Positions 4,452 to 6,011 of a stretch of 17,605 nt of DNA are shown one piece after another (the stretch's first letter is position 1; each line of letters starts with the position of its first letter). Source of the DNA: a virus (Duplodnaviria; Heunggongvirae; Uroviricota; Caudoviricetes); the IMG/VR virus record IMGVR_UViG_2675903413_000004, positions 1-17,605 of that record; one strand, 5' to 3'. The notes beneath the pieces were generated by a model. That model did no database searches and had not been told where the DNA came from. It worked only from the letters and a program-made list of their open reading frames with translations. A program made the translations under genes and the position numbers.

Positions 4452-4896
4452 TCAGTGCCTTTAAATGCTTTTGCCACACCATTGGCCACGGCTATTCCTG
4501 TATATTCCCAGTGACGATTATCCAGCCAGATAGCGGCGGCGATATCATCAACGGAATCCTGACCATGCGGTAAATAATGACGTCGAAGAATTAAATATTG
4601 TTCGAGTCCATTTCTTTCAATTTCATGGACTCGCTTTGTCAGTTTTTTACTTCAATTTCCAGTTCAGGCGCATAAATATCATTTACTTTGCCAACTAGTT
4701 GAAGTGCAGCCCCCGGACGCTTTAATACTTCTGCCAATGCTTCTTTACTTTCCGTTGCCACAATTCGCGTCAGATAGTTATGTGCTGGGGCAATTTTATT
4801 ATCCATCGCCATTTCATTAATAAATTTGTTGTAGGCGGTCTGATTTGGCTCAAAAACAATATCAACACCACAAACACACAGTTTAATTTGTTCCAT
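4448..4896 (-). CDS. Tail assembly chaperone fusion product made by programmed -1 ribosomal frameshift (P2 E+E-prime / lambda GT analogue)
   Basis: Slippery heptamer A_AAA_AAC occupies the last two sense codons of the 4639..4896 ORF. The -1 frame is then open for 61 codons (CTG ACA AAG ... GGC ACT GAA) and ends at a TGA (4448-4450) overlapping the tape-measure ATG (4449-4451). Confidence 0.55.
4639..4896 (-). CDS. Tail assembly chaperone (gpE/G-like, zero-frame product)
   Basis: 85-aa ORF immediately upstream of the tape measure gene, ending in the slippery site; ATG at 4894-4896. Confidence 0.6.
   Translation of the reverse strand: MEQIKLCVCGVDIVFEPNQTAYNKFINEMAMDNKIAPAHNYLTRIVATESKEALAEVLKRPGAALQLVGKVNDIYAPELEIEVKN
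4642..4648 (-). other. -1 programmed frameshift slippery site A_AAA_AAC
   Basis: Minus-strand sequence GTA AAA AAC TGA (plus-strand gtttttt at 4642-4648); heptamer is in the X_XXY_YYZ register relative to the chaperone reading frame. Confidence 0.55.
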
Positions 4897-5182
4897 CTCT
4901 AATACTCTCTCTTAAATTAATTTCGTCCACTAACTGATTATGACGCGCAGCACACTGGCCATAAATTTCAAGATAAATCGTCAGTAATTCTGCTGCGTCT
5001 TTACCCGTGGCACCATTCAGGCGCGGCAACTGCGTGGCGCATTTAGTTTTCAGGTTTTCCTGATAACGCACGTTCGGTACCGACTGCGGCGCTGTTGTAC
5101 ATGCTGACAAACTCATCAGACAGGCAATGATTAGTAAAAACGGGCTTAAGTATTTCCGTGCGTATCTCTCGCGGTGCCACAT
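4883..5182 (-). CDS. o-spanin (Rz1/LysC-like outer-membrane lipoprotein)
   Basis: N-terminus MWHRERYARKYLSPFLLIIACLMSLSAC has a basic n-region, hydrophobic core and lipobox LSA|C, followed by a Pro-rich mature region. The gene starts inside the i-spanin gene in another frame and extends past its stop (overlapped architecture). Confidence 0.65.
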   Translation of the reverse strand: MWHRERYARKYLSPFLLIIACLMSLSACTTAPQSVPNVRYQENLKTKCATQLPRLNGATGKDAAELLTIYLEIYGQCAARHNQLVDEINLRESIRDGTN

Positions 5183-5381
5183 TTTTTAACGCCTCCAGTT
5201 TATCTTCCAGCGCTCTGGCCGAATCACTGGCAATACCCTGCATTGCTTTTCGCGATTCATTACCGGCCACCTGCGCCGCTGTATTGATTGCCAGCTCTAA
5301 GCTATCACGCCGCCAGTCAGCGGTTAGCCAGCCCCAGACAAACGCCAGCGCCACCACAACCAGCCACTGCCCGCTGCTCAT
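5043..5381 (-). CDS. i-spanin (Rz/LysB-like)
   Basis: Single N-terminal transmembrane segment (WLVVVALAFVWGWL) followed by a charged helical periplasmic domain. ATGA overlap with the endolysin stop at 5378-5383. Confidence 0.65.
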   Translation of the reverse strand: MSSGQWLVVVALAFVWGWLTADWRRDSLELAINTAAQVAGNESRKAMQGIASDSARALEDKLEALKNVAPREIRTEILKPVFTNHCLSDEFVSMYNSAAVGTERALSGKPEN

Positions 5382-5722
5382 CAGCGCACCCCGTTATGTT
5401 CCAGACTGAAATGATTGCCATCCGGTCTGGATTTAAAGCGTCCGCCCCAGGCACCACCCAGTGATTCCCAGTATTCCCCCAGTGGCAGATAATCTTCTGT
5501 GCGGGTTTTGTACTGACCGTTCACGAACAGATTGAAATCCACCGCCAGCCGCTGGGTGTGCAGGCTGTTAGAAATACCGCTGCCTTTCTTCGCATTCAGC
5601 GCGGCCTGTTCTGGTGTACGGTAAGCCTCACCGAACGTCAGTCTGTAGCCATGTTCTTCTGCCCAGTGGATCAGACTGGCCACCATGACTGTGAATAATT
5701 GCTGTTTTTCACTCAGGGTCAT
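5381..5722 (-). CDS. Endolysin, peptidase M15-type (L-alanyl-D-glutamate peptidase-like), no signal peptide
   Basis: ORF track 5381..5839, but the first ATG (5720-5722) has a GGGAG SD 8 nt upstream; the longer N-terminus overlaps the holin and looks non-coding. Zinc-ligand-like motifs SLHTQRLAVD (H-x6-D) and DGNHFSLEH. Confidence 0.7.
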   Translation of the reverse strand: MTLSEKQQLFTVMVASLIHWAEEHGYRLTFGEAYRTPEQAALNAKKGSGISNSLHTQRLAVDFNLFVNGQYKTRTEDYLPLGEYWESLGGAWGGRFKSRPDGNHFSLEHNGVR

Positions 5723-6011
5723 TTGTCTTGCTCCCGTTCTGCTTTCCCGCTGCACGTCTGCGCAGCCACACTTCCACCGCCTGATAACCGGCAATCCCCA
5801 GCGCCGCCCCCAGCCCCTGAATGGCCAGCGGGCTGGCATCCGGGATCTGAATTAGTACCGCCCCGGCCACCACTGAAACCAGACTGCCCAGGATCACGCG
5901 ACCGGCAAACAGGCGCGGCGTGATTGGGTCATTACTGGTCAGCACATTGCCGATGGCAATCAGTGCGCCAATGATCAGCAGTGAATAAAGGCTCTTTTCA
6001 TGTTCCTGCAT
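5709..6011 (-). CDS. Holin (three predicted transmembrane segments, charged C-terminus)
   Basis: 100 aa with hydrophobic stretches LLIIGALIAIGNVL, RVILGSLVSVVAGAVLIQI and LAIQGLGAALGIAGYQAV, then a basic/acidic tail. Immediately upstream of and overlapping the endolysin gene. Confidence 0.65.
   Translation of the reverse strand: MQEHEKSLYSLLIIGALIAIGNVLTSNDPITPRLFAGRVILGSLVSVVAGAVLIQIPDASPLAIQGLGAALGIAGYQAVEVWLRRRAAGKQNGSKTNDPE

Follow-up and report, generated by a model that had tools for sequence, protein, structure and literature searches.

The roles of holin, endolysin and spanins in phage lysis have been tested experimentally in P2 and lambda. The gene arrangement of HP1, in which a sheath gene (orf23) and a tube gene (orf24) are followed by hol, lys, the spanin gene orf25, the chaperone gene orf26 and the tape measure gene orf27, is said to go back to the 1996 genome paper of Esposito et al. 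The HP1 cassette has been shown by experiment to cause lysis, with hol and lys tested (PMC7312051). Here we analyze the lysis cassette of a 17,605-nucleotide (nt) stretch of Caudoviricetes DNA, positions 1 to 17,605 of IMG/VR virus record IMGVR_UViG_2675903413_000004 (the window, taken throughout as the whole of this stretch), in which genes for a holin, an M15 endolysin, an inner-membrane spanin (i-spanin) and an overlapping outer-membrane spanin (o-spanin) lie among tail genes. The closest described systems are ESSI2_ev015, ev129 and ev040 (Peduoviridae, Quadragintavirus; NC_049395 and relatives) and Cronobacter phage ESSI-2. Over window positions 559-8558, ESSI2_ev015 shares 96-97% nucleotide identity, and its RefSeq gene order is identical: tail completion, tail sheath, tail protein, holin, endolysin, Rz-like spanin, a small open reading frame (ORF) corresponding to the o-spanin, tail assembly chaperone and tape measure. 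Unlike the window, the genomes of these phages are complete and include the genes for capsid, scaffold, terminases and adaptor as well as those for tail fibres. We conclude, with a probability of about 0.93, that the window carries a late morphogenesis operon of the kind that is ordinary for an HP1-like (ESSI-2 / Quadragintavirus-type) member of the Peduoviridae, with a complete lysis cassette lying between the tube and chaperone/tape measure genes by descent.

The position of the cassette was compared across both distant and close relatives. A tblastn search with the sheath returned 76 phage records, from Vibrio, Escherichia, Pseudomonas, Pseudoalteromonas, Salmonella, Pasteurella, Aeromonas, Haemophilus, Cronobacter and Yersinia, and gene order was inspected in three distant ones, HP1, Vibrio phage K139 and Pseudomonas phage phi3. 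In K139 and phi3 the lysis genes likewise lie between the tube and the chaperone/tape measure, and the order completion-sheath-tube-lysis-chaperone-tape measure is common to HP1, K139, phi3 and ESSI2_ev015. Among closer relatives, we collected 80 IMG/VR loci whose tube protein is 70-100% identical to that of the window, 77 of which were informative in retaining at least 1.5 kb downstream of the tube gene. All but one of these 77 carry, in this order, the tube, a holin of the P2 gpY type, an M15 endolysin, i-spanin, o-spanin and chaperone, and the tube-to-chaperone distance ranges from 1118 to 1574 nt over the IMG/VR loci and the three reference phages. Every gene of the block in the window has significant Pfam and PHROG profile matches, and these, together with the recurrence of the order in 76 of 77 related loci, place the block far beyond chance. 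The identities of the genes and the conservation of their order are direct observations of this analysis. Only two of the 80 loci depart from the pattern: in L014 an inserted stretch of about 1.1 kb (~7791-9117) separates a truncated chaperone gene from the tape measure, and in L058 the tube gene is cut at residue 142 (~6426), with no recognizable lysis genes downstream.

The first-pass annotation had placed the lysis block between a 151-residue tube protein and the chaperone and tape measure genes, which the PF10772 and PF10963 flanks and the tape measure that follows bear out; it had also called this placement atypical and suggested modular shuffling as a cause. Atypical it is by comparison with P2, but not within its own lineage, as the gene orders of HP1, K139, phi3, ESSI2_ev015 and 76 of the 77 IMG/VR loci attest. 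The position is diagnostic of the HP1/ESSI-2 branch, not an anomaly. A recent, lineage-specific insertion or shuffle that brought the cassette here, into a position unusual for this element, might nonetheless be read from the presence of a P2-gpY-like holin (54% identical to P2 Y by BLASTP) amid HP1-like tail genes, from holin alleles that are incongruent with the flanking genes, and from an endolysin type unlike those of both HP1 and P2. We consider such an event very unlikely, because the position is common to Haemophilus, Vibrio, Pseudomonas and enterobacterial phages whose sheaths are only 42-52% identical to that of the window, and is kept in nearly all of the closer relatives. That distant phages and close relatives share the position indicates that the slot is ancient and that its contents alone have been exchanged.

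These contents are indeed variable. The junction is occupied in HP1 by a 78-residue pinholin and a signal-arrest-release (SAR) muramidase (PMC7312051), whereas the window has a 100-residue gpY-type holin and a soluble M15 peptidase. By BLASTP (E<1) the window holin has no match to HP1 Hol, and the endolysin shows no similarity to HP1 Lys, to the K139 or phi3 endolysins, or to P2 K. At the tube/chaperone junction of K139 and phi3 there is an additional gene, for a DksA-like zinc-finger protein. At 80% identity, the gpY-type holins of the IMG/VR relatives (L006-L085; locus ~6466-6766, just downstream of the tube) form at least 10 clusters that do not follow the identity classes of the tube and endolysin genes beside them; in L010, for example, tube and endolysin are 99-100% identical, yet the holin belongs to a different allele cluster from that of the window-type locus L006. 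This incongruence points to recombination within the cassette, and only in that sense does modular shuffling survive as a description. The identities of i-spanins among the relatives are, moreover, clearly multimodal. One might go further and propose that the tube/chaperone junction of HP1-like phages is not a frozen accident but a selected 'cargo slot', into which non-orthologous lysis genes and extra genes are repeatedly swapped by recombination, its position tying the dose of lysis proteins to the step-down in expression between tube and chaperone/tape measure. This proposal is speculative and, on balance, we doubt it; if true, the step-down would run from the high-copy tube to the low-copy chaperone and tape measure, and gene position would itself form part of the lysis clock. 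A separate observation concerns orf30 of K139 (L003, 9815-10393), a protein of 192 residues in which the N-terminal half of an o-spanin-like lipoprotein (LLLSGC) is fused in frame to the C-terminal half of a tail chaperone. The fusion may be genuine, or the 2002 record may contain an error of sequencing or annotation.

The cassette itself, on the minus strand at 6011-4883, is complete as first described, with family matches for all four genes (Table 1), and the functional calls made from the sequence are correct by family matches, motifs, transmembrane domains (TMDs) and lipobox. The holin match to PF04550 extends over the full length of the model. Its hydropathy profile has strong TMDs at residues 5-27 and 33-60 and a weaker, Gly-rich third helix, which is also seen in allelic relatives, followed by a charged, basic C-terminus (RRRAAGKQNGSKTNDPE). 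The endolysin scores 43.1 bits against PF13539, for which the cut-off is 25, and its translation shows H55-x6-D62 and D101-x2-H104, the pattern to be expected of an M15 zinc peptidase, H104 being the distal His. Against the PDB, phmmer returned only a marginal match, to the L-Ala-D-Glu peptidase Ply500 (2vo9, E=0.42). Hydropathy analysis of the endolysin revealed no TMD or hydrophobic segment, and no signal or SAR segment. Its start is best placed at ATG 5722 rather than at ATG 5839, which gives the 152-residue ORF of the program-made list; the shorter form fits the relatives and RefSeq gp13 of ESSI2_ev015.

The i-spanin has a single N-terminal TMD, and the o-spanin is a prolipoprotein whose ATG at 5182 is preceded by GGAGG, 9 nt upstream, and whose signal peptide closes with the lipobox L-S-A-C28; the next residue is Thr, with no Asp at +2. 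In the RefSeq record of ESSI2_ev015 (L001, 9830-10018) this gene is annotated as a 62-residue 'hypothetical protein' that begins at an internal Met, with loss of the signal peptide. The 99-residue ORF from ATG 5182 is the better call, and the reference records of the ESSI-2-type group still mis-call their o-spanin genes. The o-spanin gene begins 199 nt into the i-spanin gene in the +1 frame, overlaps its last 140 nt and ends 160 nt past its stop. By these features the pair is predicted to be a two-component spanin of the 'overlapped' architecture as defined by Kongari et al. (PMC6139136).

The cassette is also tightly packed into the surrounding tail genes, a coupling that can be read directly from the gene boundaries. 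The holin gene starts 9 nt past the tube stop; holin and endolysin genes overlap by 14 nt; the endolysin stop and the i-spanin start share the sequence TGATG; and the o-spanin gene in turn overlaps the chaperone gene by 14 nt. A promoter/terminator consensus scan of window positions 2400-9000 found fewer sites than shuffled controls, with none on the coding strand within 4451-8304. A separate lysis transcription unit therefore finds no support, the scan sites being below the shuffled controls and none of them relevant on the coding strand. As no promoter or terminator of its own was detected and its start and stop codons overlap with those of its neighbours, we infer co-transcription and translational coupling of the cassette with the tail genes. 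The P2-type activator motif TGT-N12-ACA has 3 matches in the window, approximately the chance expectation for six specified bases, and none in the inter-operon region of the relative. Immediately downstream of the portal gene, at 9981-10304 on the plus strand, is a gene for a zinc-finger late activator of the Ogr/Delta type (PF04606, E=9e-20).

Family membership and homology suggest how such a cassette would act. It would probably be transcribed and translated within the long late tail transcript, and the timing of lysis would be set by holin triggering, not by separate transcription. The gpY-type holin would build up in the inner membrane and, at a critical level, open holes, through which the soluble, signal-less M15 zinc peptidase could reach the peptidoglycan and cut its peptide stems. 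The inner-membrane i-spanin and the outer-membrane lipoprotein o-spanin would then fuse both membranes, finishing lysis. Both these biochemical roles and the logic of timing are assigned by homology to characterized families.

The identity of the tail genes that flank the cassette is central to its placement, and the first-pass annotation had raised the possibility that the 375- and 151-residue proteins upstream were not sheath and tube at all. Sequence methods alone gave no link between either protein and solved structures, and hhalign found no similarity to P2 FI or FII, so this doubt was legitimate. We therefore predicted the structures of both proteins from alignments of their homologs and searched the predictions against known folds, the check that had been proposed. 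Matches to the predicted 375-residue fold include sheaths of extracellular contractile injection systems (eCIS), of diffocin and of the antifeeding prophage (AFP), with no capsid among them, and the predicted fold of the 151-residue protein supports a tail tube. Neither an HK97 fold, which was specifically looked for, nor membership of the P2 gpN family was found for the 375-residue protein. The alternative that the two are head proteins (an HK97-fold capsid and an accessory protein), which would restore a P2-like order of capsid-lysis-tail, draws some support from the lack of a capsid gene anywhere in the window as well as from the hhalign result. It has next to no chance of being right, however, as the fold searches already refute it: a sheath fold together with a tube fold excludes the capsid. 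Moreover, ESSI2_ev015 has a separate P2-family major capsid gene further upstream. The structural models thus identify the DUF2586 and HP1_Orf24 proteins as a genuine sheath and tube, and the original assignment holds.

The lack of a capsid gene is accounted for by comparison with a near-identical contig. IMGVR_UViG_2737471864_000009 (27,699 bp) has the same first and last bases as the window and is 99.99% identical to it over 559-8558, but the window is without two internal pieces that total 10,094 bp, exactly the difference between 27,699 and 17,605. The first, of 5,137 bp, is missing at window 560/561 and, to judge by ESSI2_ev015, carries genes for the tail fibre, for fibre assembly and for further parts of the baseplate, as well as the 3' end of Tail_P2_I. 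The second, of 4,957 bp (5,157 bp relative to ESSI2_ev015), is missing at window 8557/8558 and holds the 5' part of the gpR-like terminator gene, the adaptor, small terminase, P2-family capsid and scaffold genes, roughly 1.4 kb from the 5' part of the large terminase gene, and the inter-operon region. The P2-type head module (scaffold, gpN capsid and small terminase) is accordingly absent from the window and present in both the near-identical contig and ESSI2_ev015. Remnants flank the second junction: the minus-strand ORF 8537-8301 is the C-terminal third of a gpR-like tail terminator, matching only positions 87-132 of a 133-position model, and the plus-strand ORF 8618-8926 is the C-terminal end of the large terminase, matching only the last part of Terminase_6C. 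A 110-residue minus-strand ORF that spans the junction (8528-8860), antisense to the terminase remnant, is probably spurious. Each junction has 2 bp of microhomology. Exact searches of GTDB representative genomes and IMG/VR with a 36-mer across 8557/8558 gave no match, nor did either junction occur in any of 5,426 complete E. coli genomes. The two gaps may be true deletions specific to the strain, in a prophage undergoing decay, or may be artefactual, arising from the way the window was produced. We also dismissed the idea of a head-less element that makes tail and lysis proteins only, such as a tailocin-like particle, because the window has a truncated gpR-like terminator and no tail fibres and still carries portal and replication genes.

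Some of these results weigh against reading the window as an ordinary HP1-like late operon with a complete lysis cassette. The region that bears the divergent late promoters in relatives is missing, which bears on expression of the cassette in this element. No antiholin gene resembling P2 lysA was found in the cassette, and the control of timing is to that extent not fully described. The roles of its proteins rest here on homology, whereas experiments exist for the HP1, P2 and lambda cassettes. Finally, the sheath model is of moderate confidence only (predicted local distance difference test score, pLDDT, 61), with residues 190-264 poorly modelled, though its matches are consistent. One might also suppose that a decaying prophage has left the cassette here as a silent relic, its reading frames intact but no longer expressed or functional in this element; relative to the near-identical contig, the window does lack the inter-operon region in which, going by relatives, late promoters should lie, as well as head genes, tail fibres and part of the tail terminator. 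We regard this as somewhat unlikely. Each of the four lysis proteins matches its counterpart in the full-length contig (L006) at 100% identity; there is thus no decay in the cassette itself, whose identity is unaffected by the gaps. The gaps may be an artefact of how the window was made, their junctions occurring in no collection searched, and the idea concerns expression in one copy, not what the cassette is.

The features of this operon are collected in Table 1.

Table 1. Late-operon features of the window in order of transcription, with positions given in window coordinates (aa, amino acids)
Feature	Position	Strand	Evidence
gpS-like tail completion / virion morphogenesis protein, 235 aa	8304-7597	minus	phrog_26 E=4e-33; weak PF05069 Phage_tail_S match
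Predicted contractile tail sheath, 375 aa, DUF2586 / HP1 orf23 family	7600-6473	minus	PF10758 E=5e-135; phrog_907 'tail sheath' E=3e-164
Predicted tail tube, 151 aa, Phage_HP1_Orf24 / DUF2597	6476-6021	minus	PF10772 E=8e-64
Holin, 100 aa, P2 gpY family	6011-5709	minus	PF04550 E=6e-39; phrog_175 E=2e-39
Endolysin, 113 aa, M15 (VanY-like) zinc peptidase	5722-5381	minus	PF13539 Peptidase_M15_4 E=7e-11; endolysin PHROGs down to 7.5e-16
i-spanin, 112 aa	5381-5043	minus	phrog_1152 Rz-like spanin E=2e-34; TMD at residues 3-23 (hydropathy)
o-spanin, 99-aa prolipoprotein	5182-4883	minus	PF23793 LysC E=3e-7; phrog_2425 E=2e-31
Tail assembly chaperone, 85 aa, P2 gpE analogue	4896-4639	minus	PF10963 Phage_TAC_10 E=9e-37; 43% identical to HP1 orf26
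Slippery heptamer A_AAA_AAC (4648-4642) and -1 frame extension (E' analogue)	4448-4648	minus	simulated frameshift
Tail tape measure protein, 655 aa	4451-2484	minus	PF10145 E=2e-22; phrog_28 E=8e-100

The first intact late-operon gene of the window is that of the gpS-like protein, which is 29% identical to HP1 orf22 and 31% identical to P2 S by BLASTP. The DUF2586-type sheath gene directly precedes the HP1_Orf24-type tube gene, with which it overlaps by 4 nt (6473-6476). Downstream of the cassette, the chaperone assignment is underpinned by a classical slippery heptamer, A_AAA_AAC, which sits at the end of the gene in the X_XXY_YYZ register, and a simulated -1 shift at this site gives a chaperone fusion of 148 residues whose TGA overlaps the tape measure ATG. 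The heptamer is in register in 75 of 77 related loci, HP1, K139 and phi3 among them. Beyond the tape measure, in the direction of transcription, lie genes for a DUF2590 protein, baseplate J (Baseplate_J) and Tail_P2_I.

Further observations were made elsewhere in the window. Its early region is without 914 bp relative to ESSI2_ev015 at window 13473/13475, the corresponding segment of that record (23588-24501) being annotated as 'RNA-binding protein' and 'DNA polymerase exonuclease subunit'. At the window's start, a 130-residue minus-strand ORF (1-393) has a signal-peptide-like N-terminal region and no Pfam match; it is 100% conserved, with a hypothetical annotation, alongside this prophage in several E. 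coli chromosomes, and could be cargo of the prophage.

Overall, the placement reported here is already known: it is the textbook layout of the HP1-like branch of P2-like phages and is annotated in RefSeq in genomes 96% identical to the window. Its importance beyond correct annotation is small, with the practical corollary that P2 is an unsafe template for gene order across the Peduoviridae. Compared with HP1, the cassette of the window occupies the same position in the operon as hol, lys and orf25, between orf24 (tube) and orf26/orf27, and the sheath, tube, chaperone, tape measure and DUF2590 proteins encoded around it have HP1 homologs at 31-60% identity. The cassette of P2, Y-K-lysA-lysB-lysC, resembles that of the window in its gpY, which is homologous to the window holin, in its LysC family, which matches the window o-spanin, in its overlapped spanin pair, and in being embedded in a late morphogenesis operon among tail genes, there between X and R/S. 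It differs in that P2 keeps L-X-Y-K-lysA-lysB-lysC-R-S in the O operon and FI-FII-E/E'-T-U-D in a separate one, in having an endolysin, K, that is unrelated to that of the window, and in possessing lysA, which the window cassette lacks. The S-R-Rz-Rz1 genes of lambda, in turn, share with the window the three-step logic and the order holin, endolysin, i-spanin, o-spanin, whereas their cassette heads the late operon, Rz1 is fully embedded in Rz, and the proteins belong to other families.

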